In this document: positions 10,601-26,413 of the stretch, piece by piece
How the letters are laid out: every line of letters begins with the position of its first letter
Numbering within the stretch: position 1 is the stretch's first letter
DNA from: Acidimicrobiales bacterium
Lineage (GTDB): Bacteria; Actinomycetota; Acidimicrobiia; Acidimicrobiales; Iamiaceae
Direction of reading: 5' to 3'
DNA length: 64,000 bases
Assembly (NCBI GenBank): GCA_025463985.1
Contig: JAODBM010000192.1
Span: forward strand, 2,201 to 66,200
Made by a program: the position numbers and the translations under genes
The notes under the pieces: generated by a model
Seen by the model: only the letters and a program-made list of their open reading frames with translations
Database searches by the model: none
Told to the model about the DNA's origin: nothing

Positions 10601-12784
10601 ATGGGGATTCCTGTCTCGGACGATCACGCCGCGCTGGCGCAGGTCGCACGGACGTTCCTGACGAAGCAGGAGAGCCTGACCGCGGCGCGCCACGCCTTGG
10701 ACGGCGAGGACGCCAGGCCCGGGTTCTGGAAGGACATGGCCGCGCTCGGGTGGTTGGGTCTCCACGTCCCCGAGAGCCACGGCGGGTCCGGCTACGGGCT
10801 CCTCGAGCTGAGCATCGTCGTGGAGGAGCTGGGCCGGCAGTGCACGCCGGGGCCGTTCCTCACGACCGCGGTCGTCTCTGGCGCGATCGCGGCCGTCGGC
10901 GGCGACGCGCTGCGGGCCGAGCTGCTGCCCGGTCTGGCCAACGGCGAGCTCGTCGCCGGACTCGGCGTCGGCGGCACCCTGAAGCTCGACGACACCGGCG
11001 TGCTCGACGGTGCGGTCGGCGCGGTGATGGCCGCGGCCGGCGCGGACCTGCTGGCGCTCGTCGTCGGCGACGACCTCGTCCTCGTCGACCCGACCGCGGC
11101 CGGCGTCACGATCTCGGACCGGCAGAACCTCGACCCCACGCAGCCGTGCGCCGCGGTCCGTCTCGAGCAGGTCACCGTCCCTGCGCAGCGCATCGTCCGC
11201 GGCGGCGCTCGACCTGCCCGCCTGCTGCTCGACGTGCTCGCGGCCGCCGAAGCCGCGGGGGGTGCGGCGGCCTGCCAGGAGATGGGCACGGAGTACGCGA
11301 AGGAGCGCACGGCCTTCGGCCGGCCCATCGGACAGTTCCAGGCCATCAAGCACCACTGCGCCAACATGTTCGTGGACGAGCAGCTGTCGGTGGCGGCCGT
11401 CTGGGACGCAGCACGCGCCGCCGACCTCGCCGACGTGTCGCCGCTCTCGGCTCGGGCCGCGGCGGCCATCGCTCTCCCGGCGTTCCTGCGGGCTGCGAAG
11501 ACCAACGTGCAGGTGCACGGCGGCATCGGCTTCACCTGGGAGCACGACGCCCACCTCCACCTGCGCCGCGCGGCCGCGCTCAACGCGTTCGTCGGGCCGG
11601 TCGACGCCATCAGCGCCGACGTGGCGCGGCTCGCCGACGAGCAGCCCGGCCGGCGGTCGACGCTCGACCTGCCGCCCGAGGCCGATCAGTACGTGGCCGA
11701 GGCCGAGGAGTTCGTGGCCCGCTACGGCGAGCTGCCCGAGGCCGAGCGCCATCGGTTCGTCGTGGAGAGCGGCTACCTCTACCCGTCGTGGCCGAAGCCG
11801 TATGGCCGAGGAGCCGGGCCGCTGGAGCAGCTCGTGCTCGACGAGGCCCTGGGCGACCTTCCGCTCCACGAACCACTGGGCGACCCGGCCTGGACGCTCC
11901 CCATCATCCTCCCGACGATCATGGTGCACGGCACCGACGACCAGAAGCAGCGCTGGATCCGTCCGACGATGGACGCCGACATGAAGTGGTGCCAGCTCTT
12001 CAGCGAGCCCGGCGCCGGCAGCGACCTGGCCAACCTGTCGACCAGGGCCGAGCGCGGCGACGGCGGCTGGATCGTCACCGGCCAGAAGGTCTGGACCAGC
12101 AGCGGCCACCAGGCGGCGCGCGGCTTCGCCTTGGTGCGGACCGACCCGGACGCCGCCAAGCACCGCGGCATCACCGCCATGGTCGTCGACATGAAGGCCA
12201 AGGGCGTGACCGTGGTGCCGCTCAAGCAGATCACCGGCGAGCAGCACTTCAACGAGGTGTTCCTCGACGAGGTGTGGGTGCCCGACGAGGACGTCGTGGG
12301 TGACGTCAACGACGGCTGGACCGTCGCCCTCACGACGCTCAGCCACGAGCGCGTGTCGCTCGGCGAGGCGGAGGCCACCCAGGGCGAACCTTGGGCCACC
12401 ATCCGGCCGCTGGCGACGAGCGAGTCGGCCACGATCGAGGTCGGCGACATCGTGGCCACCGGCATCGCCGCCCGGGCCGTCAACCTGCGCATCGCCGCCC
12501 GAGCCGTCGTCGGCGCCCCTGCCGGCGTCGAGGGCAACGTCACCAAGCTCATCGGCACGGGGCACACGCAGCGCATCGCCGAGTTCGGCGTGCGCCTCCT
12601 GCAAGACCAGGCCGTCTACACCGATGGTCCGGGCGAGCCCGTGACCTACCAGTTCTTGTTGTCCCGGGCCTCGACCATCGCTGGTGGGACGTCGGAGATC
12701 CTCCGCAACGTCATCGCCGAGCGCGTGCTCGGTCTGCCCCGGGACCCCAAGCCGCTCGAGACCGCACCGAAAGGCCGTTCATGA
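10601..12784 (+). CDS. Fused double acyl-CoA dehydrogenase: N-terminal beta-like ACAD half plus C-terminal alpha-like ACAD half
   Basis: 727-aa ORF. The first half has ERTAFGRPIGQFQAIKHHCANM and GGIGFTWEHDAHLHLRR but no SEPxxGSD. The second half has LFSEPGAGSDLANL, GQKVWTSSG and TIAGGTSEILRNVIAERVLGLPRD. Confidence 0.9.
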   Translation: MGIPVSDDHAALAQVARTFLTKQESLTAARHALDGEDARPGFWKDMAALGWLGLHVPESHGGSGYGLLELSIVVEELGRQCTPGPFLTTAVVSGAIAAVGGDALRAELLPGLANGELVAGLGVGGTLKLDDTGVLDGAVGAVMAAAGADLLALVVGDDLVLVDPTAAGVTISDRQNLDPTQPCAAVRLEQVTVPAQRIVRGGARPARLLLDVLAAAEAAGGAAACQEMGTEYAKERTAFGRPIGQFQAIKHHCANMFVDEQLSVAAVWDAARAADLADVSPLSARAAAAIALPAFLRAAKTNVQVHGGIGFTWEHDAHLHLRRAAALNAFVGPVDAISADVARLADEQPGRRSTLDLPPEADQYVAEAEEFVARYGELPEAERHRFVVESGYLYPSWPKPYGRGAGPLEQLVLDEALGDLPLHEPLGDPAWTLPIILPTIMVHGTDDQKQRWIRPTMDADMKWCQLFSEPGAGSDLANLSTRAERGDGGWIVTGQKVWTSSGHQAARGFALVRTDPDAAKHRGITAMVVDMKAKGVTVVPLKQITGEQHFNEVFLDEVWVPDEDVVGDVNDGWTVALTTLSHERVSLGEAEATQGEPWATIRPLATSESATIEVGDIVATGIAARAVNLRIAARAVVGAPAGVEGNVTKLIGTGHTQRIAEFGVRLLQDQAVYTDGPGEPVTYQFLLSRASTIAGGTSEILRNVIAERVLGLPRDPKPLETAPKGRS

Positions 12785-13689
12785 CCGACTACTCGTTCGT
12801 CGCCTACGAGACCCTTGACGAGGGCAAGATCGCCCGGATCACGCTGAACCGACCGGAGGCCCGGAACGCGCAGCACCGCGGCCTGCTCGTCGAGCTCAAC
12901 GACGCCTTCTTGCGGGCGGAGGCCGACGACGCAGTGCGCGTCGTGATCCTCGCCGGCGCCGGCCCGATCTTCTCCGCCGGCCACGACATGGGCTCGGCCG
13001 AGATGTGGGAGCAGATGAACCCCGGGCCGAACCAGCACGAGACCTGGAAGATCAACGGCGGGACGCGCAAGGGCGTCGAGCAGCGGATGCTCCAGGAGTG
13101 GCACTACTTCTTCGAGAACACGAAGCGCTGGCGGAACCTGCGCAAGATCACCATCGCCCAGGTGCAGGGCACGGTCTACGCCGCCGGCTTGATGCTCATG
13201 TGGGCCTGTGACCTGATCGTCGGCGCCGAGAACGCCAGGTTCGCCGACGTGGTCGGCGCCCGCCTCGGCATGTGCGGCGTGGAGTACTTCGGCCACCCGT
13301 GGGAGTTCGGCCCCCGCAAGGCCAAGGAGCTCATGCTCACCGGCGACGCGGTCGACGTCGACGAGGCCCACCGCCTCGGCATGGTGAGCAAGGTCTTCCC
13401 GACCGACGAGCTGGCCGAGCGGACGCTCGAGTTCGCACAGCGGATCGCGGCCTTGCCGACGATGACCGCGCTGCTCATCAAGGAGTCGGTCAACCAGACC
13501 GTCGACAACATGGGCTTCAACAACGCGCTGAGCGCGTGCTTCTCGCTCCACCAGGTGAACCACGCCCACTGGGCCGAGATCCATGAGGACGGCATGCCGA
13601 TCGCCACCGAGGAGGACGGCATCGTCAACTGGCGAGAGGCGCCGCCGGTCGTGGTCGCCGAGAAGACCACGGTGCGGGCCGGGACTTGA
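12781..13689 (+). CDS. Enoyl-CoA hydratase/isomerase family protein
   Basis: ATG 12781 overlaps the upstream stop (ATGA) inside ORF 12391..13689. Motifs are ITLNRPEARNA and LAGAGPIFSAGHDM. Confidence 0.85.
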   Translation: MTDYSFVAYETLDEGKIARITLNRPEARNAQHRGLLVELNDAFLRAEADDAVRVVILAGAGPIFSAGHDMGSAEMWEQMNPGPNQHETWKINGGTRKGVEQRMLQEWHYFFENTKRWRNLRKITIAQVQGTVYAAGLMLMWACDLIVGAENARFADVVGARLGMCGVEYFGHPWEFGPRKAKELMLTGDAVDVDEAHRLGMVSKVFPTDELAERTLEFAQRIAALPTMTALLIKESVNQTVDNMGFNNALSACFSLHQVNHAHWAEIHEDGMPIATEEDGIVNWREAPPVVVAEKTTVRAGT

Positions 13690-13727
13690 CGACCGACGGG
13701 GCGGCGGTCGTGAGGAGCCAAGCGCTG

Positions 13728-14051
13728 ATGACCAAGGTCGCGATCGTGTGCGAGCTCGTCGCCAAGCCGGGCCGCAAGCCCGAGCTGCTCGACGCGCTCG
13801 ACCGCATCGCGCGGGTGTGCGACGACGAGCCGGGCACCGAGGCCTACGTCGTCATGGACTCGGCCACCGACGACGACGCCGTCGTGCTCTTCGAGCTGTT
13901 CACCGACGAGGCGGCGTACCAGGAGCACCGCGCCCACCCGGTGCACGAGGAGGTCGTCAGCGGGCTCGACGACCTCCTCGGGGACGGCAGCCGGCTCTCG
14001 CAGCTCCGTCCCGTCAGCCACAAGCTCATCGACCACGACAGGGGAACGTGA
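13728..14051 (+). CDS. Antibiotic-biosynthesis-monooxygenase (ABM) domain protein / putative quinol monooxygenase
   Basis: ATG 13728 follows GAGGAG; TTG 13686 is an alternative start. The roughly 100-aa ferredoxin-like pattern is VAIVCELVAKPG...FELFTDEAAYQEHRAHP. Confidence 0.65.
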   Translation: MTKVAIVCELVAKPGRKPELLDALDRIARVCDDEPGTEAYVVMDSATDDDAVVLFELFTDEAAYQEHRAHPVHEEVVSGLDDLLGDGSRLSQLRPVSHKLIDHDRGT

Positions 14052-14905
14052 TGGCAGGAACCGGAACACGCCTCGACGGCAAGGTGGCCTTGGTCACCGG
14101 CGCGGCCTCTGGGGTCGGGCGGGCGACGGCGAAGATCTTCGCGGCCGAGGGCGCGAAGGTCGTCGGCACCGACATCGACGACGTCAACGGCGCCGCGTTG
14201 GTCGACGAGATCAAGGCTGACGGCGGCGAGGCGATCTACGTCCACGCGAACGTCCGGAACTACGACGACCTCGTGGCCGCGGTGGCAGCGGCCGAGGAGA
14301 CGTTCGGCCGGCTCGACATCTGCATCGCCAACGCCGGCACCGTCGGCGGCAACGCCGTGGGCCGCCCGATGGAGGACCTCAGCGAAGAGCAGTGGGTCAC
14401 CATCGTCGACATCAACCTGCACGGCGTGTACCGCACGTTCCGGGCCGCGATCCCGGCCCTGCGGCGAGCCGGTGGCGGCGCCTTCTCGTCCACCGCCTCC
14501 ATCGCCGGGCTCACCGGCGTCGCCGGCCAGTCCGCCTACAGCGCCTCGAAGGGCGGGATCATCGCGCTGGTGCGCTCGCTCGCCTACCAGCTTGCGGGTG
14601 ACCACATCCGGGTCAACTGCGTGTGCCCCGGCGGCATCAACACGAACCTGCTCGCCGAGACCGACCTGATGGCCATCCTCATGGCGCAGGCCGCCGACGG
14701 GCCCCCGATGGGTGCGCCGGTCGAGGCGGCGCCGGGCGCCGACCCGGTCGCCCTGATGAACCAGGCGGCGGACCCCGAAGACATCGCCAACGCCCACCTC
14801 TACCTCGTCTCGGACGAGGCGCGGATGGTCAACGGCCAGTCGCTCGTGGTGGACGCCGGGAGCATGGTCGCCAACATGTGGCTCGTCGTGCCACGGGATC
14901 AATAA
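14051..14905 (+). CDS. Short-chain dehydrogenase/reductase (SDR)
   Basis: ATG 14051 shares one nucleotide (A at 14051) with the upstream TGA stop (14049-14051). Motifs are VTGAASGVGRA (TGxxxGxG) and YSASKGG (YxxxK). Confidence 0.9.
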   Translation: MAGTGTRLDGKVALVTGAASGVGRATAKIFAAEGAKVVGTDIDDVNGAALVDEIKADGGEAIYVHANVRNYDDLVAAVAAAEETFGRLDICIANAGTVGGNAVGRPMEDLSEEQWVTIVDINLHGVYRTFRAAIPALRRAGGGAFSSTASIAGLTGVAGQSAYSASKGGIIALVRSLAYQLAGDHIRVNCVCPGGINTNLLAETDLMAILMAQAADGPPMGAPVEAAPGADPVALMNQAADPEDIANAHLYLVSDEARMVNGQSLVVDAGSMVANMWLVVPRDQ

Positions 14906-14915
14906 GGAGACAGCT

Positions 14916-16103
14916 GTGAGCACCACCGAGAGCCCGAAGATCGACTTCCTGTCCGGTGACACGTTCCGGAACGGCCACCCGTGGGACGTGTACGAGTGGC
15001 TGCGCGACAACGATCCGGTCCACTGGCACGAGGAGCCCGAGGGCCCCGGCTTCTGGGCGGTCACGCGCTGGAAGGACATCCGCTGGGTCAACAACCACGA
15101 GCAGCAGTACTCCCACGCGCCCACGTCGATCCTCGAGGGCGAGGGCATCGTGCAGGAGTTCGCCTCGATGGTGAACCTCGACCCGCCGTCGCACACCACC
15201 GTGCGCAAGCTGGCGATCCCCGACTTCCTGCCCGGCGCCGTGCGGGACCGGTTCCCGGCGTTCAAGCAGGCGGCCAAGGACATCATCGAAGAGGTGCGGC
15301 CCAAGGGTGAGTGCGACCTCGCCGTCGAGGTGGCCGGGCGCATGGCCTCCTACGTGACCGGCGACCTGCTGGGCATCCCGCGCCCGGACGCGGTGAAGCT
15401 CTACGACGACGTCGAGATCGGGCTCGGGGGCGGCAACCACACGCTCCAGGAGCGCGAGGAGGCCACCAACCGCCTCATGGACTACAGCGCGGGCGTCTAC
15501 GAAGACCGCAAGCGCAACCCCACCGACGACGTCTCGTCCAAGATCGCCAACGGGCAGAACGGCCTCCCCGGCCTCGACCTCCCGGCGTTCTGCTCGAACC
15601 TCGCCTTGCTCATCGTCGGCGCCGGCGACACCACCCGGCACCTCATCGGCGGCGGGATGCTGGCCCTGTTCCAGTTCCCCGACCAGCGCAAGCTGCTGGA
15701 GGAGAACCTCGACAAGGCCATGCCGACCGCGGTCGAGGAGATGCTCCGCTGGGTCACGCCGGTGATCTACAACCGCCGCCAGGTCATCCAGGACCACACG
15801 CTCGGCGACCGGGAGATCAAGGAAGGCGACAAGGTGGTCGTCTACTACGGCGCCGGCAACCGCGACCCCCGCGAGTTCGGCAACGCCGACACGTTCGACG
15901 TCCGCCGCTCGCCGAACACGCACGTCGCGTTCAGCGGCCAGGGCGCTCACTTCTGCCTCGGCGCCCACGTCGCCCGGGCCGAGGCCTCGGCCATGTTCCA
16001 GGTCCTGCTCACCGAGCTGCCCGGCATCCACCAGACCGGCGAGGTCTCCTGGGCCGAGTCCAACCAGGTGATGGGCCCCGCGCACTTCCCGGTGGCCTTC
16101 TGA
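14916..16103 (+). CDS. Cytochrome P450 (CYP124/125/142-like clan)
   Basis: GTG start after AAGGAG. Motifs are I-helix VGAGDTTRH, K-helix EEMLRW and heme loop FSGQGAHFCLGAHVARAE. Confidence 0.92.
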   Translation: MSTTESPKIDFLSGDTFRNGHPWDVYEWLRDNDPVHWHEEPEGPGFWAVTRWKDIRWVNNHEQQYSHAPTSILEGEGIVQEFASMVNLDPPSHTTVRKLAIPDFLPGAVRDRFPAFKQAAKDIIEEVRPKGECDLAVEVAGRMASYVTGDLLGIPRPDAVKLYDDVEIGLGGGNHTLQEREEATNRLMDYSAGVYEDRKRNPTDDVSSKIANGQNGLPGLDLPAFCSNLALLIVGAGDTTRHLIGGGMLALFQFPDQRKLLEENLDKAMPTAVEEMLRWVTPVIYNRRQVIQDHTLGDREIKEGDKVVVYYGAGNRDPREFGNADTFDVRRSPNTHVAFSGQGAHFCLGAHVARAEASAMFQVLLTELPGIHQTGEVSWAESNQVMGPAHFPVAF

Positions 16104-16870
16104 TGGCGATCCTCGACCTGTTCCGGCTCGACGGCGACGTGGCCGTCGTGACGGGGGCGGGCACGGGCATCGGCCGCGGCATCGCCCTCGGCTTGTCCGA
16201 GGCCGGTGCGGCGGTCGTGCTCGCGGCGCGCCGCGAGAAGATGGTGGAAGAGGTGGCCGCCGGCATCCGCGAGGCGGGTGGCAAGGCGCTCGCCGTGGCC
16301 ACCGACGTGACCGATGCCGCGCAGGTCGAGCACCTGATCGCGGCCGCGGTCGAGGAGTTCGGCAAGATCGACATCTGGGTCAACAACGCCGGCGGCATGC
16401 AGGGCGAGAAGAACGTGCTGTTCCGCCAGCACAGCCCTGAGTCGGTCGAGAAGATCCTCGGCCTCAACTTCATGGCCGTCTGGCAGTGCACGTCGCTGGC
16501 GCAGGCCGCGATGTCCGAGGGCGGGCGCATCATCAACGTCAGCTCGATCGCGGCGAACATGCCCGGCACGCCGTTCAACGGTCCCTACGGCGCGGCCAAG
16601 GCGGCGGTCAACCACATGACCAAGACCTTTGCGACCGAGCTCGTCCGCAAGAAGATCCGCGTCAACGCGATCGCCCCCGGCGGCACCGACACGGAGGACC
16701 TGCGGGAGACCGCCGGCCTCTACCAGGACATGGACGAGATCGCCAAGGAGGTCCCGCTGGGTCGGCTGGGGCGCGACGAGGACTTCGGCGCCGCGGCCGT
16801 GTACCTCGCGTCGCGGGCGTCGGACTGGGTGACCGGCACGGTGCTCACGGTGAGCGGCGGGCAGAACTAG
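16103..16870 (+). CDS. Short-chain dehydrogenase/reductase (SDR)
   Basis: ATG 16103 shares one nucleotide (A at 16103) with the P450 TGA stop (16101-16103). Motifs are VTGAGTGIGRG, NNAG and YGAAKAA. Confidence 0.9.
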   Translation: MAILDLFRLDGDVAVVTGAGTGIGRGIALGLSEAGAAVVLAARREKMVEEVAAGIREAGGKALAVATDVTDAAQVEHLIAAAVEEFGKIDIWVNNAGGMQGEKNVLFRQHSPESVEKILGLNFMAVWQCTSLAQAAMSEGGRIINVSSIAANMPGTPFNGPYGAAKAAVNHMTKTFATELVRKKIRVNAIAPGGTDTEDLRETAGLYQDMDEIAKEVPLGRLGRDEDFGAAAVYLASRASDWVTGTVLTVSGGQN

Positions 16871-17809
16871 ATGGCCGTCACGGCGGTCGGCGAGAGCGCC
16901 GCCGCCGAGGCCCACCCGTCGCACGCGCGTGCCACCGCCGGCCTCCTGACGGTGATGGTCATCTACGGGCTCGGCGCACCCGTGATGAAGCTGATCAGCG
17001 CGCCACCCCTCGTCGCGGCGTCGTCGCGGCTGTGGTTCGCCCTCCCGCTGCTGTGGCTATTGTGCCGCGTGACCGGGCGCCGCGTGACGCTCGCGATGCT
17101 GCGCCAGACCGCGCCTGCCGGCGTACTCTTCGGGATGAACCTGATCATGATCTTCGCGGCGCTCCAGCGCGTCTCGGTCGCGATCGTGTCGGTGATCCTC
17201 GCCCTGCAACCCGGCATCGTGCTGGTGATCGGCGCCCGCTGGCTCGGGGAGCGGGCGACGCGCTGGCAGATCCTCTGGACGGGCGTGGGCATCGTCGGCG
17301 TGGCCGTGGTGGTGGCCGGCGGCGATCCCCACCTGCGCGGCGACCAGTGGGGCCTGCTGTTCGCGGTCTCCGCGCTGCTGTCCTACACGGGCTACTACCT
17401 GCTGAACCGGCGACACCGGGCCGACCTGGGCATCGGCTCGCTGGAGTGGATGCTCGGCGTCACGCTGTTCGCGAGCATCTTCGTCCTGCCGCTCGCGCTC
17501 CTCACGCTGTCGGTCGCCGACTACCGCCAGCTCGGCGGAGCCGACTGGGTGTACCTCGGGCTCGTGGTCGTGATGCAGGGCATCGTCGGCCACACGCTGA
17601 TGAGCTGGGTGCACAAGTTCGTGCCCGCCGGACGCTCGTCGCTCTTCCTGCTGGGCATGAACGTCGTCGCGGTCGCGGCGGCGTGGCCGTTGCACGGCGA
17701 GCGCGTCACCCTGCTGCAGATGCTCGGCGGCGTCGTCGTGCTCGGGGCCGTCGGCGCGGTGATCGCGCGGCCGGCGAGCGTCACGGTCGAGGTCGACTAC
17801 GCCGGTTGA
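16871..17809 (+). CDS. EamA/DMT-family membrane transporter
   Basis: 312-aa ORF starting directly after the upstream TAG. It has about 10 hydrophobic segments in a two-fold EamA-like pattern. Confidence 0.75.
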   Translation: MAVTAVGESAAAEAHPSHARATAGLLTVMVIYGLGAPVMKLISAPPLVAASSRLWFALPLLWLLCRVTGRRVTLAMLRQTAPAGVLFGMNLIMIFAALQRVSVAIVSVILALQPGIVLVIGARWLGERATRWQILWTGVGIVGVAVVVAGGDPHLRGDQWGLLFAVSALLSYTGYYLLNRRHRADLGIGSLEWMLGVTLFASIFVLPLALLTLSVADYRQLGGADWVYLGLVVVMQGIVGHTLMSWVHKFVPAGRSSLFLLGMNVVAVAAAWPLHGERVTLLQMLGGVVVLGAVGAVIARPASVTVEVDYAG

Positions 17810-17830: not shown

Positions 17831-18856
17831 TCAGCTTCGCACGGTCTGGGCCAGCGCCCCGATGTCGGCGAACGTGCGGATCAGCTCGTTGAGGTGCGTG
17901 CAGGTGTTGGTGCCGCGCATGTGCGCGCCCACGAAGCGCCGCATGGTGCGCACGTCCTCGCCGACGAGCGCCTGCACGCTGCCGGCGGCCCACGGGCACT
18001 CGTACCAGGGCAGCACGTGCGGCGTGGCCTGCGCCGAGCGCACGACCAGCGTCTCGGGATCGACGGTGGCCAGCGCCGCGTACTCGTGCAGGATCGTCTC
18101 CTGCCCGCTGCTGTCGCCGAAGCTGTCGCAGAACATCGCGTCGACGCGCAGCGGGTCGCCGTCGATGACGTCGATCCGCCGCCGCCGGCGCATGGTGTTG
18201 CGCTCGACCGGATCGGCCGCGTGCCACGCGAGCGGGTCGTCGATGGGCTCCAGCGAGGGCATGGGCGGGCGCACGAACTGCGTGATCGACCGATCCCCCT
18301 GCAGCCGGACGTCGATCGACCCGCCGACCCGCCATCCCGCGCAGATGCCGAGCGCTGATCGGGGATCCTGGTCGTCGGCCGACCGCATGGTCGTGCGCCC
18401 GGTGTTGGACGCGATGAGGCCGAAGCGGGCCAGGCCCGACCAGGCCGACAGCGCGTCGAGCAGCAGGTAGAGCAGCGACCGCTCGTCGCGCTGGTCGGGG
18501 AGCAGCTCGTCGACGACGCCGCGCCAGCCGGCACGGGTGTTGCGGCCGGCGAGGAGGGCGAGGCGAGGCTCCGGCGGGGTCGCCTCGAGCGCCAGCACCT
18601 CGTGCCCCGGATCGACCCGCGCCCGCACCTCGGCCTCGGCGAGCACCTCGGCCGACCCGTCGGCCCGCGTCCGCAGGTCGCGGGCCCGCAGCACGTAGTG
18701 CGTCGGGCCGTCCATGCCCTCGGGGTGGGCGCCGTCGAGCGTGGTCGTGCGGCGGACCGAGCCCAGTGGACGCGGCGGCGTCGTGGTGATCGGGTCCTTG
18801 GGCCCTTCGCGGTCGGCCGCCGCGACCAGGTCGTCGCTCGCGCGCCGGCCGGTCAT
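17831..18856 (-). CDS. Conserved hypothetical protein, DUF2889-like
   Basis: 341-aa ORF overlapping the upstream Mo-enzyme gene by 4 nt. The C-terminal GTNTCTHLNELIRTF resembles the C-x-H-L motif I associate with DUF2889. This assignment is from memory only. Confidence 0.5.
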   Translation of the reverse strand: MTGRRASDDLVAAADREGPKDPITTTPPRPLGSVRRTTTLDGAHPEGMDGPTHYVLRARDLRTRADGSAEVLAEAEVRARVDPGHEVLALEATPPEPRLALLAGRNTRAGWRGVVDELLPDQRDERSLLYLLLDALSAWSGLARFGLIASNTGRTTMRSADDQDPRSALGICAGWRVGGSIDVRLQGDRSITQFVRPPMPSLEPIDDPLAWHAADPVERNTMRRRRRIDVIDGDPLRVDAMFCDSFGDSSGQETILHEYAALATVDPETLVVRSAQATPHVLPWYECPWAAGSVQALVGEDVRTMRRFVGAHMRGTNTCTHLNELIRTFADIGALAQTVRS

Positions 18857-20904
18857 GCGGGGGCGGCCACGACGGGTTCGAGCACCGGCTCGAGGGTCAC
18901 GGCGATGCCGGAGAAGCGGGGCATGCCGGTGAGCGGATCGAGGTCGTCGACGTCGGACGTCAGCTGGTTGACGTCAGGGCCGCTCCATCCATGGGGCAGC
19001 GAGACGACGCCGGGCCGCATGGCGGAGCTGATCTCCACCATGGCGGTCGTCTCGCCGTGCCGGGATCGGACGTGGGCCCCGGCGCCGTCGGTGAGGTGGT
19101 AGGCCGCCGCGTCCTGCGGGTGCACCAGGAGCGTGGGGAGCGGGCGGCGCTGCTGCGACGCCACCTCGCGCAGCAGGCTGTTCATCTGGTGCGGGAGCCG
19201 GCGGTTGACGAGCGCCAGGCCCGGCGGCGCGGGTGCCGCGTCCCGCCAGGCCTCAAGCTGGTCGACGAGCTCGGCCGGCGCGAGGTCGAGCCGCCCCCTC
19301 GGGATCCGGTCGGGGACCACCCAGCCGACCTCGGGCGCGTCGTCCGCCACGATGCCGCTGGGGGCGGCCTTGATCTGCTCGAACGTGGCCCGGCCGCTGC
19401 GCGCCGCGCCGGCCAGCACCGCGTCGTCGTCGAGCGGGTCGTTCGGCGCCTCGGGCAGCCGGACGCCCATCTTGCGGCCGAGCTCGGACACGATCCACCA
19501 CGTGGCCCGCCGCTGCCCGGCCGGCTCGACCACGCGTGCGCCGTACTGGGTGAACGGGATCGGGAACGTGCCGTCGACGTACGCGGGCATGTCGGCCCGC
19601 TCCAGCTGGCCGGTGCCGGCGAGGAGGTGGGTCGCGAGGTCGGTGGTCTCAGTCCGCCGGACGTCGTGGACGGCCAGGACGTCGAGCGAGGTGAGCGCAG
19701 CGCGCGTCTTGTCGCTGTCGGGGAAGACCTTGGCCGGGTTGCCGCCGAACACGAGCAGTGCCCGGACGCCGCCCGAGAGGATCTCGTCGTTGAGGACCGC
19801 GGCCGGGAGCTCGCCCCAGGTCTGGCTGAACTCCGGCCGGCTCGTCGCGGCAGCACCGGTGACGCGCGGCCGGCTGGCGATGCGGCTCTCCATGGGTCGG
19901 AGGAAGCCGCGGGTGAACAGCACGCCGCCGGGACGGTCGAGGCTGCCGGTCACCGCGTTCAGCGCCCACGAGAGCCACTCGGCGGCGTTCGGGGCCTCGC
20001 TCATCGAGACGCCCGTGCCGCAGGAGGTCGCCACGCGCGGCGTCGTCACCAGCAGCTCGACGACCTCGGCCAGCGTCGCGAGCGGCACGCCGCAGCGCGC
20101 CGCGGTGGTCGCCGCGTCGAAGGGCTCGACGCAACGCCGCAGCAGGTCGAGCGATGCCGCGTCGACGGCCGCGTCAAGGAACTCGGTGTCCGGTCGGCGG
20201 GCGAGCACCTCGCGCACGAGGTGACCGAGGAGCGCGGCGTCGGTGCCCGGGAGCAGCTGCACGTGGACGTCGGCGCCCGCGGCGCTCTCGGTGATCCGCG
20301 GGTCGACCACGACGACCTTGCCGCCGGAGGCGCGGATCTGGCGCAGCTCCTGGAGCGCGTTCGGCCACATGACGCCGTGGCCGTGCGACACGATCGGGTT
20401 CTGGCCGACGAGGATCACCAGCCGCGCGTTCTCGCGATCGGGGAACGGCAGCAGCAGCGGCGAACCGGTCATGAGGTCGGCGACGAGCAGCTTGTTCGGC
20501 GTGTCGAGCGTCAACGAGCTGTAGATCTGGTTGGTGCCGAGGGCCCGCGCGAACGAGTCGATGAAGTAGCGCCCGGCGGCGTCGAACGCCCAGCCCGCCG
20601 ACCGGTAGATGGCGACCGCGTCGGGGCCGTGCTCGTCGACGACGGTCCGCAGCCGGGCCGCGAGATCGTCGAGCGTCTCGTCCCACGATGCCGCCTGACC
20701 GGCCAGCGCCGGGTCGTCGAGCCGGTCCTCGTGGTGGTGCATGGCCGGCAGCGCGCGGCCCTTCGAGCACGTGTAGCCCTGCGACACCGGGTGGTCGCTG
20801 TCGCCGCGCACGCTGACGATCTGCTCTCCGTCGGCGGTGACCACGATCCCGCAGGATGCTGCGCAGATGCGGCAGAACGTTCGAACCTCACGGCGGTCGG
20901 CCAC
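18853..20904 (-). CDS. Molybdopterin (MopB/DMSO-reductase superfamily) oxidoreductase, cytoplasmic, with an N-terminal 4Fe-4S motif
   Basis: ORF 18853..20931. I prefer GTG 20904, which is preceded by GGAG 5 nt upstream; GTG 20931 is the alternative. The Cys cluster is CRICAASCG...YTCSKG. There is no twin-arginine signal peptide. The C-terminus MPRFSGIAVTLEPV is typical of the molybdopterin-binding domain. Confidence 0.85.
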   Translation of the reverse strand: MADRREVRTFCRICAASCGIVVTADGEQIVSVRGDSDHPVSQGYTCSKGRALPAMHHHEDRLDDPALAGQAASWDETLDDLAARLRTVVDEHGPDAVAIYRSAGWAFDAAGRYFIDSFARALGTNQIYSSLTLDTPNKLLVADLMTGSPLLLPFPDRENARLVILVGQNPIVSHGHGVMWPNALQELRQIRASGGKVVVVDPRITESAAGADVHVQLLPGTDAALLGHLVREVLARRPDTEFLDAAVDAASLDLLRRCVEPFDAATTAARCGVPLATLAEVVELLVTTPRVATSCGTGVSMSEAPNAAEWLSWALNAVTGSLDRPGGVLFTRGFLRPMESRIASRPRVTGAAATSRPEFSQTWGELPAAVLNDEILSGGVRALLVFGGNPAKVFPDSDKTRAALTSLDVLAVHDVRRTETTDLATHLLAGTGQLERADMPAYVDGTFPIPFTQYGARVVEPAGQRRATWWIVSELGRKMGVRLPEAPNDPLDDDAVLAGAARSGRATFEQIKAAPSGIVADDAPEVGWVVPDRIPRGRLDLAPAELVDQLEAWRDAAPAPPGLALVNRRLPHQMNSLLREVASQQRRPLPTLLVHPQDAAAYHLTDGAGAHVRSRHGETTAMVEISSAMRPGVVSLPHGWSGPDVNQLTSDVDDLDPLTGMPRFSGIAVTLEPVLEPVVAAPA

Positions 20905-20992
20905 GCTCGCTCCGTTTCGCAGGTGCCCCACTACCCGGCGGCGCCCAAAATAGTATAAGAATCACACCGTATATCGGCACCCAGGAGCTTGC

Positions 20993-21643
20993 ATGACCTT
21001 CGACCTCGAGCAAACCGACCGCTTGCTGCAGACCACCCGGGCCGTGCGCAAGCGCCTCGACCTCGACCGCCCCGTGGAGCGGTCCGTCGTGCTCGACTGC
21101 TTGCGGCTCGCGATCCAGGCCCCGTCGGGCGGCAACAGCCAGCCCTGGCGCTGGATCGTCATCGACGACCAGCCCACGAAGGACGCGCTGGCGGGCCTCT
21201 ACCGGGAGGCGTACGCGCCGTACATCGCGTCGCGCAAGGCAGAGCTCGCGGCCCAGGGCGGCAACGCCGATCACCCGATCGCCCAGTCGTCCGACTACCT
21301 GGCCGAGCACCTCGAGGAGGTGCCCGTGATGGTGATCCCGTGCCTGCTGGGCCGGGTCACCGCCGACGACTCGCCCGGCCACGTCGCCGGCTTCTTCGGC
21401 TCGGTGATGCCGGCGGTGTGGAGCTTCATGCTCGCCCTGCGCAGCCGCGGCCTCGGCTCCGCGTTCACGACGCTGCACCTCGAGCGCGAGAAGGAGGCGG
21501 CCGCGCTGCTCGGTGTGCCCGACACCGTCACGCAGCTGGCACTGCTGCCCGTCGCGTACACCAAGGGCGACGACTTCCGGCCGGCCGACCGCAAGCCGGT
21601 CGAGGACGTGACGTACTGGAACGGGTGGCGGCAGCGCGGCTAA
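20993..21643 (+). CDS. Nitroreductase-family protein
   Basis: 216-aa ORF with AGGAG upstream. The motif RAVRKRLDLDRPV...APSGGNSQPWRW is typical of the nitroreductase fold. Confidence 0.8.
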   Translation: MTFDLEQTDRLLQTTRAVRKRLDLDRPVERSVVLDCLRLAIQAPSGGNSQPWRWIVIDDQPTKDALAGLYREAYAPYIASRKAELAAQGGNADHPIAQSSDYLAEHLEEVPVMVIPCLLGRVTADDSPGHVAGFFGSVMPAVWSFMLALRSRGLGSAFTTLHLEREKEAAALLGVPDTVTQLALLPVAYTKGDDFRPADRKPVEDVTYWNGWRQRG

Positions 21644-21683: not shown

Positions 21684-22934
21684 GTGACGAAGCCGATGGA
21701 GGGCGTGCGCGTCCTCGAGGTGGCGATGTTCGGCTTCGTGCCGAGCGCCGCTGCGATCCTGTCCGATTGGGGGGCCGACGTCATCAAGGTCGAGCACCCC
21801 GACGGCGGCGACCCGGTGCGCCGGCTGTCGGCGTGGGGCGTGGAGCCCGGCGCGGGTGGGCTGACGTACCTCTGGGAGGTGTTCAACCGCGGCAAGCGGA
21901 GCGTCACGATCGACATCCGCAACCCCGAGGGGCGTGACGTCCTGCTGGACCTGGTCGACCAGGCTGACGTGTTCCTCACGAACTTCCTGCCGCCGGCCCG
22001 CCGCAAGCTCGGCATCGACGCCGACGAGATCATGGCCCGCAACCCGCGGATCGTCTACGCCCGCGGCAGTGCCCACGGACCGCTCGGCCCCGACGCCGAG
22101 AAGGGCGGCTTCGACGGGCTCACGTACTGGGCCGGCGCCGGGCCGAGCATGGCCGCCCGCCCGGCCGGCGTCGACGAGCCGATCCCGATGCCGGGGCCGG
22201 CGTTCGGCGACATCCAGGCCGGCTCGCAGCTGGCCGGCGCGATCGGCGTCGCGCTGTTCAACCGCGAGCGCACCGGTGCGGGCTGCGTGGTCGACCACTC
22301 GTTGCTGGCCTCGGGGCTCTGGGCGATGCAGGCGACGATGGCCGGCACCCACACCTCGGGCCTGACCGAGCTGCCCGCGCAGGACCGCATGGGTCCCGTC
22401 AGCCCGCTCGGCAACTGGTACCGCACGTCCGACGCCCGCTGGGTGTTCCTCGGCTTCAACGAGCCCGACCGCTCGTGGCCGCGGTTCTGCGAGCTCGTCG
22501 GGCGGCCGGAGCTCACCTCGGACGGCCGCTTCGGCACGGAGGCGGCCCGCGCCGCCAACATGAAGGCCTCGATCGAGCTGCTCGACGAGATCGTCGCCGA
22601 GCACACCCTCGCCGAGTGGCAGGGCATCCTGGGCGCCCAGGAGGGTCCGTGGGCGGTGCTGCGCACGCCGCGCGAGCTGCTCGACGACGAGCAGGCCATC
22701 GCCAACGGCTTCATCCAGACGGTCGACTACGACAGCGGCGCCACGTTGAAGCTCGTGTCGGCCCCCGGCCAGTTCGACGGCACGGTGCCGACGCTCGTCC
22801 CCGCCCCCGGCCACGGCGCCGACACCGACACCGTGCTGGCCGAGCACGGGTTGACCGTCGCGCAGATCGGAGCGCTCCGCGACGGCGGTGCGATCGGATC
22901 CAGCCCGTCGACCCCGGCTGTCGAGCCTGCGTGA
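21684..22934 (+). CDS. Family III CoA-transferase (CaiB/BaiF/alpha-methylacyl-CoA racemase family)
   Basis: GTG start after AAGGGGGAG. Motifs are MTKPMEGVRVLEV, DWGADVIKVEHP and FNRGKRSVTIDI. Confidence 0.9.
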   Translation: MTKPMEGVRVLEVAMFGFVPSAAAILSDWGADVIKVEHPDGGDPVRRLSAWGVEPGAGGLTYLWEVFNRGKRSVTIDIRNPEGRDVLLDLVDQADVFLTNFLPPARRKLGIDADEIMARNPRIVYARGSAHGPLGPDAEKGGFDGLTYWAGAGPSMAARPAGVDEPIPMPGPAFGDIQAGSQLAGAIGVALFNRERTGAGCVVDHSLLASGLWAMQATMAGTHTSGLTELPAQDRMGPVSPLGNWYRTSDARWVFLGFNEPDRSWPRFCELVGRPELTSDGRFGTEAARAANMKASIELLDEIVAEHTLAEWQGILGAQEGPWAVLRTPRELLDDEQAIANGFIQTVDYDSGATLKLVSAPGQFDGTVPTLVPAPGHGADTDTVLAEHGLTVAQIGALRDGGAIGSSPSTPAVEPA

Positions 22935-24529
22935 CGGCGCCGCCCAACCCCGCTCCGTGGGCCACGATCGGTGCGCTCGTCGAGGATGCCATCGCGCGGT
23001 TCCCCGACCTCGAGGCGGTGGTCGAGGGCGGTGAGCGGTGGACCTTTCGCTCGCTCGGCGACCGCATCCACGAGGCCGCCCGCGCCCTGATCGCGAGCGG
23101 CGTCGCGCCGGGCGATCGGGTGTCGGTGTGGGCGCCGAACATCCGCGAGTGGGTGGTCATCTCGCTTGCGATCCACAGCGTCGGTGCCGTCCTCGTGCCG
23201 ATCAACACGCGGTTCAAGGGCGGCGAGGCGGCGTACGTCCTGCGCAAGGCGAAGGTCCGCCGCGTCTTCACCGTGACCGACTTCCTCGACGTCGACTACG
23301 TCGAGGTGCTGCGCTCCGAGGCGGACCTCGAGCTCGACGAGATCGTGGTCCTGCGCGGCCCGTCCCACCCCGGCGCGACGTCGTGGGAGGACTTCGTGCG
23401 CCGCGGTGCCGACGTCGACGACGCCGAGCGCACCGCCCGCGTGGCCGCGGTTAGCGGCGAGGACCCGTGCCACATCCTCTTCACCTCGGGCACCACCGGT
23501 GCGCCGAAGGGCGCGGTGCTCGGGCACGCGGCCGTGTGCACCGCGTACTCCGTCTACGCCGACAACGTCGGCCTGCGCACCGGCGATCGCTACCTGATCG
23601 TGCTGCCGTTCTTCCACTCGTTCGGGTTGAACGCCGGGATCCTCGTCTGCCTCATGGCCGGCGCCACGATCGTGGCCGAGCCCGTGTTCGACGTGGAGTC
23701 GGTGCTGGAGCGCATCGTGGAGGAGCGGATCACCGCGTTCCCCGGCGCGCCGACCGTCTACCAGACCCTGCTCGCGGCCCCGGCCGCGACGCGGGAGAAG
23801 CTGACCACGCTCCGGCTGGCCGTCGTGTCCTCGGCCGCCATCCCGGTCGAGATGATCCGCCAGATGAGCAGCGTGCTGAAGATCGACACGATCATCACCG
23901 GCTACGGGCTCACCGAGGCGTCCGGCATCGTCGCGATGTGCCGTCACGGCGACGACCCCGAGGTGATCGCCCAGACGGCTGGCCGCACCGTCGAGGGCAT
24001 GACGATCCGCATCGCCGACGAGGCGGGCAACGAGCTGCCGGCCGAGGTGGCCGGTGAGGTCCTCGTGCGCGGCTACACGGTGATGCAGGGCTACTTCGAC
24101 GACCCCGAGCAGACCGCGCAGACGATCGACGCCGAGGGCTGGCTGCACACCGGCGACATCGGGATGATCCGCGCCGACGGCAACCTCGTGATCACCGACC
24201 GGATGAAGGACATGTACATCGTGGGCGGGTTCAATACGTATCCCGCCGAGATCGAGAACGTGATGTCGACCCACCCGGCCATCGCCGCCGTGGCCGTGGT
24301 CGGCGTGCCCGACGAGCGCCTGGGCGAGGTCGGCTCGGCCTTTGTGATCCCGGCGAGCGGCGTCGCCGCCGACCCCGACGAGATCATGGCCTGGTGCCGA
24401 GGTCGCATGGCCAACTACAAGGTGCCCCGGCACGTCCACGTGGTCGAGGACTTCCCGCTCAACGCCACCGGGAAGGTGCTCAAGTTCAAGCTCCGGGTGC
24501 AGGCCCGCGACATGCTCGCCCCGAGCTGA
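22931..24529 (+). CDS. AMP-dependent acyl-CoA synthetase/ligase
   Basis: GTG 22931 overlaps the upstream stop (GTGA) inside ORF 22475..24529. Motifs are LFTSGTTGAPKG, TGDIGMIRADGNLVITDRMKDMYIVGGFNTYP and GKVLKF. Confidence 0.9.
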   Translation: MTAPPNPAPWATIGALVEDAIARFPDLEAVVEGGERWTFRSLGDRIHEAARALIASGVAPGDRVSVWAPNIREWVVISLAIHSVGAVLVPINTRFKGGEAAYVLRKAKVRRVFTVTDFLDVDYVEVLRSEADLELDEIVVLRGPSHPGATSWEDFVRRGADVDDAERTARVAAVSGEDPCHILFTSGTTGAPKGAVLGHAAVCTAYSVYADNVGLRTGDRYLIVLPFFHSFGLNAGILVCLMAGATIVAEPVFDVESVLERIVEERITAFPGAPTVYQTLLAAPAATREKLTTLRLAVVSSAAIPVEMIRQMSSVLKIDTIITGYGLTEASGIVAMCRHGDDPEVIAQTAGRTVEGMTIRIADEAGNELPAEVAGEVLVRGYTVMQGYFDDPEQTAQTIDAEGWLHTGDIGMIRADGNLVITDRMKDMYIVGGFNTYPAEIENVMSTHPAIAAVAVVGVPDERLGEVGSAFVIPASGVAADPDEIMAWCRGRMANYKVPRHVHVVEDFPLNATGKVLKFKLRVQARDMLAPS

Positions 24530-26104: not shown

Positions 26105-26413
26105 TCAGTCCGACGCGGGCAGCGGCTTTGCGCCCTTGAGCTCGAGCGCCTCGCCGCCGACGGCGAGCGTGCCGGTGCCGCCCTTGACGGCGAGGACCTC
26201 GAGGTTCGACGCCTCGTGGACGAACCGCTTGCCCAGGGCCGTGCCGCCCGACCAGTCGGCTGCGATCGTGACGCCGGCGGGCGGCTCGTCGCCCTGCGGC
26301 ACCATCGCCGCGCCGCCGCACTCGAGCTGCACGGGTTGGGCCGGCGGCCGGACGACCACGACCTCGACCTCGTCGACGGCGCTGCGCCAGCGTGACCCAG
26401 CTTTGAGTTCCAC
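26105..26413 (-). CDS. Small hypothetical protein (102 aa) with an internal two-fold repeat, co-transcribed with the ligase
   Basis: GTG start, and the stop is 6 nt before the ligase start. The repeat halves are EVEVVVVRPPAQPVQLECGGAAM and LEVLAVKGGTGTLAVGGEAL. GC3-rich codon use supports coding. Confidence 0.55.
   Translation of the reverse strand: MELKAGSRWRSAVDEVEVVVVRPPAQPVQLECGGAAMVPQGDEPPAGVTIAADWSGGTALGKRFVHEASNLEVLAVKGGTGTLAVGGEALELKGAKPLPASD

Follow-up and report, generated by a model that had tools for sequence, protein, structure and literature searches.

We analysed a 64,000-nt stretch of DNA (the window; contig JAODBM010000192.1, 72% G+C) from the 83% complete assembly of an uncultured Acidimicrobiales bacterium. 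In this stretch, a gene for a molybdopterin oxidoreductase of the MopB family shares 4 nt with the gene for a 341-residue DUF2889 protein that follows it. The preliminary description of the locus had proposed that the DUF2889 protein is a conserved, new type of partner for the molybdoenzyme. The overlap was found as described (gcATGAcc, with ATGA common to both genes). The conserved partnership was not. We consider it fairly probable that MopB and DUF2889 are separable enzymes of one acyl-CoA catabolic island, and not a dedicated two-subunit molybdoenzyme.

A survey of the conservation of the gene pair had been set beforehand as the check that could overturn the partner proposal, and the pair turned out not to be conserved. 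None of eight MopB homologues at 46–59% identity had a DUF2889 neighbour (0/8), and no DUF2889 gene was found within ~6 kb of 19 further MopB family loci in Acidimicrobiia genomes (0/19). Counted over the MopB-family loci from other genomes, the pair occurred in 0/22. The same result was obtained from the side of DUF2889. The six closest DUF2889 homologues checked (50–56% identity; P0124, P0125, P0126, P0129, P0136, and L017) had no MopB neighbour (0/6); they adjoin Amidohydro_2, short-chain dehydrogenase/reductase (SDR), CoA-transferase, glyoxalase, or unrelated genes. L017, the closest homologue in GTDB, lies at the start of its contig, and the 207 nt upstream of it encode no MopB C-terminus. 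Any MopB gene within 7 kb was found at 2 of the 80 best DUF2889 loci (GTDB contigs, one genome per species). Same-family relatives of the source organism yielded orthologues of neither MopB nor DUF2889.

The class was sampled with 301 genomes, 31 of which carry a long-form DUF2889. In this sample, the window, three genomes of genus g82, and G068 were the only cases with a MopB gene at most 2 kb from DUF2889. The MopB linked to DUF2889 in g82 belongs to another subfamily (~756 aa, ~31% identical to the window MopB), and two opposite-strand genes stand between DUF2889 and MopB in G068 (locus L093). At a further locus, L049, the two genes are convergent. A maximum-likelihood tree of DUF2889 placed the window copy in a seven-member clade with a support of 100/99. 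Gene context was examined for all of its other members except P0130, and these five were unpaired. On this tree, the label ‘MopB-adjacent’ required at least three changes. By this survey, the MopB–DUF2889 pairing is local to the window lineage, while the MopB family itself is widespread.

For the long-form DUF2889, ~887 clusters at 50% identity scored below E 1e-30. The best 150 of these 887 strong clusters contained no MopB–DUF2889 fusion; all were 282–400 aa long. An 839-aa open frame around a DUF2889 match in G116 was rejected as an artefact of high GC content; a better gene on the antisense strand overlaps it.

The neighbours of DUF2889 pointed in another direction. At least one acyl-CoA dehydrogenase (ACAD), enoyl-CoA hydratase (ECH), CoA-transferase, AMP-forming ligase, or thiolase-like gene was present within 7 kb at 53 of 57 full-length DUF2889 loci. 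The background is a CoA-family gene in 32% of random 14-kb windows of this genome. The recurring neighbours are luciferase-like monooxygenases, family III CoA-transferases, Amidohydro_2 proteins, SDRs, thiolase-like and ChsH2-type OB-fold pairs, AMP-ligases, P450s, ACADs, and APH kinases. The window, Nocardia nova, and L120 each have a fused double ACAD near DUF2889. At L121:4939-6858 (G248:C1, Acidimicrobiia), a 639-aa fusion protein begins with a DUF2889 domain (79.5 bits) and continues as a PaaK-like adenylate-forming enzyme (AMP-binding and AMP-binding_C_2). Judged from these domain matches, the fusion is a Rosetta-stone link of DUF2889 to the CoA ligases. On plasmid pNIN3 of Sphingobium sp. 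JS3065, the gene order is AMP-ligase, DUF2889, ECH, 3-hydroxyacyl-CoA dehydrogenase (HADH), thiolase, and ACAD; a MopB gene with an FMN reductase gene is located 10 kb from DUF2889. Because of the neighbours, the 53/57 count, the ligase fusion, the double ACAD, and the pNIN3 order, DUF2889 can be placed with the CoA-thioester machinery, most likely acting on the CoA-thioester branch of the pathway or alongside it.

Sphingobium sp. JS3065 is a cultured organism. Its pNIN3 plasmid is conjugative and bears a 29-kb island (L123, 12387-41340) with nearly the gene set of the window, comprising ACAD, an ABM monooxygenase, SDRs, two nitroreductases, a CaiB CoA-transferase, an AMP-ligase, DUF2889, ECH, HADH, thiolase, MopB, and the FMN reductase.

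The assignment of the 341-aa protein to DUF2889, made in the preliminary description from its C-terminal CTHL motif, held in the HMM comparison. PF11136 matched residues 222–332 with 82.8 bits (cut-off 25), and CTHL is present. The protein shares this C-terminal module with the Pfam family; it differs as a ~340-aa tandem with a degenerate N-terminal repeat and with conserved C172 and H212. The AlphaFold2 model (pLDDT 94.3, pTM 0.92) is built from two similar units, in each of which helices follow a four-stranded sheet. A profile–profile comparison of the two halves by hhalign gave a probability of 96.6% and an E-value of 4.8e-10, which identifies the protein as a tandem duplication. The N-terminal repeat (~residues 28–130) is degenerate. 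The canonical module occupies ~residues 215–335, and this copy alone retains the motifs H257-E-Y, E286-C287-P, and C319-T-H321. In alignments of 28 and 65 sequences, C172 in the linker, H257-E258-Y259, C287, C319-T320-H321, and several Asp and Arg residues were invariant; the linker residue H212 showed no variation among the 28 sequences and was kept by at least 90% of the 65. The protein is a pseudo-dimeric tandem repeat with one Cys/His site, probably for a metal. No match was obtained against the Protein Data Bank (PDB) by sequence at E ≤ 1, and Foldseek returned nothing for the model at E ≤ 1e-3; MHC-like, hot-dog, and T-fold rows were rejected (TM ≤ 0.26). The literature on DUF2889 consisted of mentions of the name without functional data. 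The same assembly encodes a second long-form DUF2889, 37% identical to the first (L015:7176-8237, G000:C99), on a contig other than that of its second MopB.

We also weighed the explanation that DUF2889 is a genuine accessory subunit of the MopB of the window lineage, acting as an electron-transfer partner with an Fe–S or other metal centre, or as a maturation factor. Translational coupling through ATGA is in line with it. The invariant C172, C287, C319, H257, and H321, together with H212 (≥90%), could bind a redox metal or cluster; the cluster of MopB faces the surface, and no other partner is present. Furthermore, DUF2889 recurs next to or near MopB proteins of two subfamilies. Nevertheless, the closest homologues of both proteins are unpaired, and the low counts at the best DUF2889 loci and at the MopB loci of other genomes apply here as well. 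There is no fusion of MopB length among the strong clusters inspected, and the family-wide link of DUF2889, including the ligase fusion, is to CoA enzymes. A maturation role would bring to mind the NarJ/TorD chaperones, which have an all-helical fold, unlike the modelled protein with its two β-sheets. We regard a subunit role as unlikely.

The MopB protein matched Molybdop_Fe4S4 (53 bits), Molybdopterin (PF00384, 77 bits), and Molydop_binding (PF01568, 73 bits), all above their cut-offs. The CX2CX3C...C motif for a 4Fe–4S cluster was confirmed as C20-x2-C23-x3-C27...C55-S-K-G. The pyranopterin guanine dinucleotide (PGD) motifs (DPR..E, G.NP, and T.T) are invariant in the family and align with the FdhF and FdhA structures. 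PF00384, PF01568, and the PGD motifs place the protein in the DMSO reductase (Mo/W-bisPGD) superfamily. MoeA and MoaC genes were found in the same genome.

The first Cys of MopB stands 19 residues after the first GTG start and 10 residues after a second GTG at codon 10. The second GTG has GGAG five bases upstream, and the public record starts there (683 aa). Translation therefore probably begins at codon 10 (20904) rather than at 20931. The preliminary description was also right about the lack of a twin-arginine translocation (Tat) signal. In the window MopB, 10–19 residues without a hydrophobic stretch precede C20, and the family consensus begins 4–5 residues ahead of the cluster motif, so there is no room for such a signal. 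At the window locus, no gene for an FeS subunit, a cytochrome, or a membrane anchor adjoins the MopB gene, again as described earlier. From its N-terminus and its gene context, the window MopB is a cytoplasmic, partner-less protein.

We placed MopB within the superfamily by NCBIfam and PDB profile scores. No NCBIfam equivalog model reached its cut-off. The best match was Fdh-alpha (TIGR01591; 207 bits, cut-off 666), and the NasC and NasA models gave 133 bits (cut-off 1100) and 111 bits (cut-off 1000). The nearest solved relatives are cytoplasmic formate dehydrogenases, followed by NapA and PsrA/PhsA. On these scores, the window MopB is outside every characterised clade. The possibility that it falls squarely within NasA/NarB, raised in the preliminary description, can be set aside on the NasC/NasA scores and on the Asp found at the aligned ligand position. 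This Asp is the candidate for the Mo ligand residue asked about there.

In most alignments, D143 is the residue matched with the metal ligand. FdhA, F420-FDH, and FdsA carry R-[IL]-[CU]-H at the ligand, whereas the MopB family has T-[ILV]-D, with T-L-D143-T in the window protein. Of six alignments, which cover five distinct enzymes when the two sequences of an FdsA-type enzyme are taken as one, four put D143 opposite the Sec/Cys ligand. It was invariant in alignments of 116 and 42 family members and in 19 genome homologues with identities down to 34%. Its equivalent is kept in four further subfamilies: the second MopB copy of the assembly (C100) with g82, Deinococcus, and Streptomyces proteins; two Sphingomonad plasmid proteins; and a Mycobacterium branderi protein. 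The C100 protein is of the Asp type, has 809 aa, and is 31% identical to the window MopB (L016:6613-9042, G000:C100). Its gene sits between those of a MarR regulator and a class II ribonucleotide reductase. Some MopB homologues have an in-frame TGA, which raised the possibility of selenocysteine at the ligand. This was rejected, as tblastn showed Asp there and no internal stop in the aligned parts; the TGA probably reflects read-through past the gene end.

The closest sequence relatives are cytoplasmic formate dehydrogenase (FDH) subunits (FdhF/FdhH, FdhA, and FdhF of HDCR; PDB 1aa6, 7bkb, 7qv7, and 9t1s), which scored 242–202 bits with the family profile. They share with MopB the four-domain layout, the CX2CX3C...C cluster with the CxKG lysine, the PGD motifs, a length of ~680–715 aa, and the cytoplasmic location. 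In MopB, however, Asp replaces Sec/Cys. The catalytic His of the FDHs is not conserved; the ligand-adjacent residue is Thr in the window protein and Thr, Gly, or Gln in the family overall. The Arg of the FDH segment ‘RGQNNVQG’ has no conserved Arg aligned with it, and no hydrogenase, Fds, or Hdr partners are encoded nearby. The assimilatory and periplasmic nitrate reductases (NasA/NasC/NarB and NapA) are likewise type I MopB enzymes that work as monomers or with few partners. They have the cluster motif in common with MopB, and NapA scored 208 bits with the profile. In contrast to these enzymes, MopB lacks the Cys ligand and has no nitrogen-assimilation context. These comparisons bear on the idea that MopB is simply an assimilatory nitrate reductase or formate dehydrogenase of the usual kind, with its partner genes at another place in the genome. 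Its best sequence and structure matches, to FdhF/FdhA, NapA, and the NasC/NasA models, would be expected in that case. Scores 3- to 9-fold below the equivalog cut-offs, the invariant Asp, the loss of the FDH His and Arg, and the absence of nir/nas or hyc/fds genes near the window MopB make the idea highly improbable. MopB instead appears to belong to a broad clade of uncharacterised, soluble Mo/W-bisPGD proteins that consist of a single subunit and combine a formate dehydrogenase/Nap-like scaffold with an N-terminal [4Fe–4S] cluster (FS0).

Ligation of Mo by Asp is known from type II enzymes, such as NarG, ethylbenzene dehydrogenase, and steroid C25 dehydrogenase. Several type II enzymes hydroxylate hydrocarbons or steroid side chains without O2. 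They have 900–1250 aa and obligatory β and γ partners, and most are exported through Tat. MopB may resemble the type II enzymes NarG, EbdA, steroid C25 dehydrogenase, and perchlorate reductase in having Asp as the presumed Mo ligand. Otherwise, the similarity is very weak, as the MopB family profile gave 48 bits for NarG, 66 bits for EbdA, and 86 bits for PcrA. No type II β, γ, or chaperone genes were found in the neighbourhood of the window MopB. The O2-free hydroxylation chemistry of these enzymes would fit the catabolic island.

Acetylene hydratase (PDB 2e7z; E 6.8e-46 with the family profile) resembles MopB as a single-subunit, partner-less protein with a cluster. It is a tungsten enzyme of strict anaerobes, in which Cys binds the metal and a catalytic Asp follows the second Cys of the cluster motif. 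This likeness, and the lack of partners in all ~30 contexts from four phyla, are compatible with MopB being a non-redox hydratase or lyase of the acetylene hydratase type that acts on an intermediate of the pathway and in which the cluster has a structural or tuning role. Such a function would explain why no electron partner is conserved. Neither of the two acetylene hydratase residues is conserved in MopB, where the ligand position holds Asp and the residue after the second cluster Cys is Ala24. In addition, flavin and NAD(P)H enzymes are frequent immediate neighbours, and MopB enzymes are mostly redox enzymes. A hydratase or lyase function thus appears doubtful, and we would give it little weight.

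We examined the gene neighbourhoods of the MopB family for a common partner. No partner gene was common to the ~30 contexts. The homologues with 59, 57, 54, 51, and 46% identity adjoin, in this order, an overlapping SDR gene; NMO and FAD protein genes, followed by ECH and ACAD; an overlapping NMO gene, followed by ACAD; VOC/glyoxalase-family and metallo-β-lactamase-fold protein genes, followed by ECH and ACAD; and nothing obvious. NAD(P)H or flavin proteins of varied folds were often found next to MopB. These are the overlapping SDR, NMO with a 4-nt overlap, NMO with an FAD protein, FMN reductase, an FAD amine-oxidase-like protein, and, in the window, the nitroreductase. CoA-family genes were present within ~6 kb at 17 of 27 MopB loci, against the 32% background.

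Two of these homologues (54–57% identity; L122:739-8242 and the P0007 contig) lie in operons of a shared type. These encode an AMP-ligase, an unknown 362-aa protein, two small UGSC-family proteins, FAD protein(s), NMO, MopB, ECH and/or ACAD, and a Liv-type ABC transporter; the NMO gene overlaps MopB by 4 nt. In genus g82 (L101:4041-8067, L106, and L107), a MopB subfamily with 43% identity is followed on the same strand by genes for an ApbE flavin transferase and a ferric-reductase-like membrane protein, and a glyoxalase-fold gene and an SDR gene are divergent from MopB. The ApbE and ferric-reductase-like genes hint at a flavinylated membrane partner for this subfamily. On plasmids of Sphingopyxis and Deinococcus (L124 and L126), Asp-type MopB homologues stand beside modules of an APH-type phosphotransferase and ACAD.

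We infer the cofactor content, redox role, substrate, and electron partner of MopB from its sequence and surroundings as follows. MopB would bind a Mo or W bis-PGD cofactor through Asp143. The Asp-ligated metal may catalyse an oxo or hydroxyl transfer, in the form of a hydroxylation, dehydroxylation, or reduction of a small organic intermediate of the island. Electrons could move through the MopB cluster to or from a ferredoxin or a variable NAD(P)H-linked flavoprotein, and the divergent nitroreductase-fold protein may serve as the electron partner at the window locus. DUF2889, with its probable metal site, would act separately on the CoA-ester branch. In the window lineage, its gene came to stand directly behind the MopB gene, and the two are co-translated.

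A broader proposal can be put forward tentatively. MopB may represent an undescribed class of the DMSO reductase superfamily in Actinomycetota, Deinococcota, and Pseudomonadota, namely soluble, single-subunit enzymes with an FDH-like scaffold and Asp-ligated Mo/W. They may serve a step in the breakdown of acyl-CoA or alicyclic acids, for example, the O2-independent hydroxylation or dehydroxylation of a CoA ester or its precursor. DUF2889 would then be a new metalloenzyme of CoA pathways that is occasionally recruited beside them.

Several observations speak against the reading of MopB and DUF2889 as separable enzymes of one island, with an Asp-ligated metal in MopB. DUF2889 came to stand next to or near MopB at least three separate times, with MopB proteins of different subfamilies. 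The cases amount to about four lineages (the window, g82, G068/L093, and L049), as compared with ~0.15–0.85 expected by chance, a rough estimate from MopB copy numbers. The ATGA overlap gives tight co-expression, as would also be expected of a real complex. The CoA enrichment at the MopB loci is modest (about twofold), and the loci are not independent. Finally, D143 fell one or two columns off the ligand in two of the six structure alignments, because of gap placement. The repeated juxtapositions point to a loose same-pathway affinity at most.

These results have several consequences for further work. The new-partner proposal is unsupported, sparing work on a pair that is restricted to a single lineage. 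The uncharacterised MopB clade is large, spans several phyla, and has an invariant Asp in place of Cys/Sec on a type I scaffold. Its genes often lie among β-oxidation-type genes of aerobic soil and water bacteria. A characterised member would add a ligand/scaffold combination to the superfamily, and the clade could reveal a Mo-dependent step in the catabolism of lipids, steroid-like compounds, or xenobiotic acids. The long-form DUF2889 gains a clear genomic address among CoA ligases, CoA-transferases, and thiolase-like/DUF35 pairs, and the confident tandem-repeat model should be usable for functional work. We found no literature on the function of long-form DUF2889 or on the Asp-type, partner-less MopB clade. 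Searches on DMSO reductase phylogeny, aspartate, and Actinobacteria, and on molybdopterin oxidoreductase and Acidimicrobiia, returned nothing relevant.

The features of the locus are collected in Table 1. The three open reading frames from DUF2889 to the nitroreductase have GC3 values of 0.95–0.97 each. The pair is flanked by the convergent EamA transporter gene on one side and by the nitroreductase, family III CoA-transferase, and AMP-ligase genes on the other. The convergent operon ends 21 nt from the DUF2889 stop codon. Its genes were identified by Pfam matches, and its ACAD and P450 were assigned through clustering with annotated loci. Altogether, the acyl-CoA island contains a double ACAD, ECH, an ABM monooxygenase, two SDRs, a P450, a CoA-transferase, and three ligases. 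These Pfam-annotated neighbours substantiate the acyl-CoA catabolic setting ascribed to the pair earlier.

Table 1. Features of the MopB–DUF2889 locus and its surroundings (positions in the window)
Feature	Position	Strand	Details
Convergent operon	10601-17809	+	double ACAD, enoyl-CoA hydratase, ABM monooxygenase, SDR, P450, SDR, EamA transporter
DUF2889 gene	17831-18856	-	341 aa; PF11136 match
ATGA start/stop overlap	18853-18856	-	DUF2889 start 18856, MopB stop 18853; read directly in the sequence
MopB gene	18853-20931	-	692 aa from GTG at 20931; 683 aa from GTG at 20904
Divergent intergenic region	20932-20992		61 nt; 88 nt with the alternative MopB start
Nitroreductase-fold FMN protein gene	20993-21643	+	216 aa; PF00881
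Family III CoA-transferase	21684-22934	+	Pfam CoA_transf_3, 304 bits
AMP-forming acyl-CoA ligase	~22931-24529	+	Pfam AMP-binding, 293 bits
Open reading frame upstream of acyl-CoA ligase	26105-26413	-	102 aa; no Pfam match

The divergent nitroreductase-fold gene and the A/T-rich gap in front of it were found as first described. The protein matched PF00881 with 67.8 bits and stayed under all NCBIfam cut-offs. Its gene heads the plus-strand run of nitroreductase, family III CoA-transferase, and AMP-ligase. As a conserved third member of the locus, it was rejected, with a single homologue found (L047, 6 kb from a DUF2889 gene). The gap has 46% A+T over its full length and 70% A+T in a 30-nt core. 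From its position, it is presumed to be a shared promoter/operator region. A scan for the sigma-70 consensus gave no match in the gap, and no regulator gene adjoins it. The A/T-rich core contains a short, imperfect hairpin or palindrome, GTGCCGATATACGGTGT (minus strand, 20964-20980), which may be an operator. Small open reading frames related to the 102-aa frame of the window (cluster c19) are present in five DUF2889 loci.

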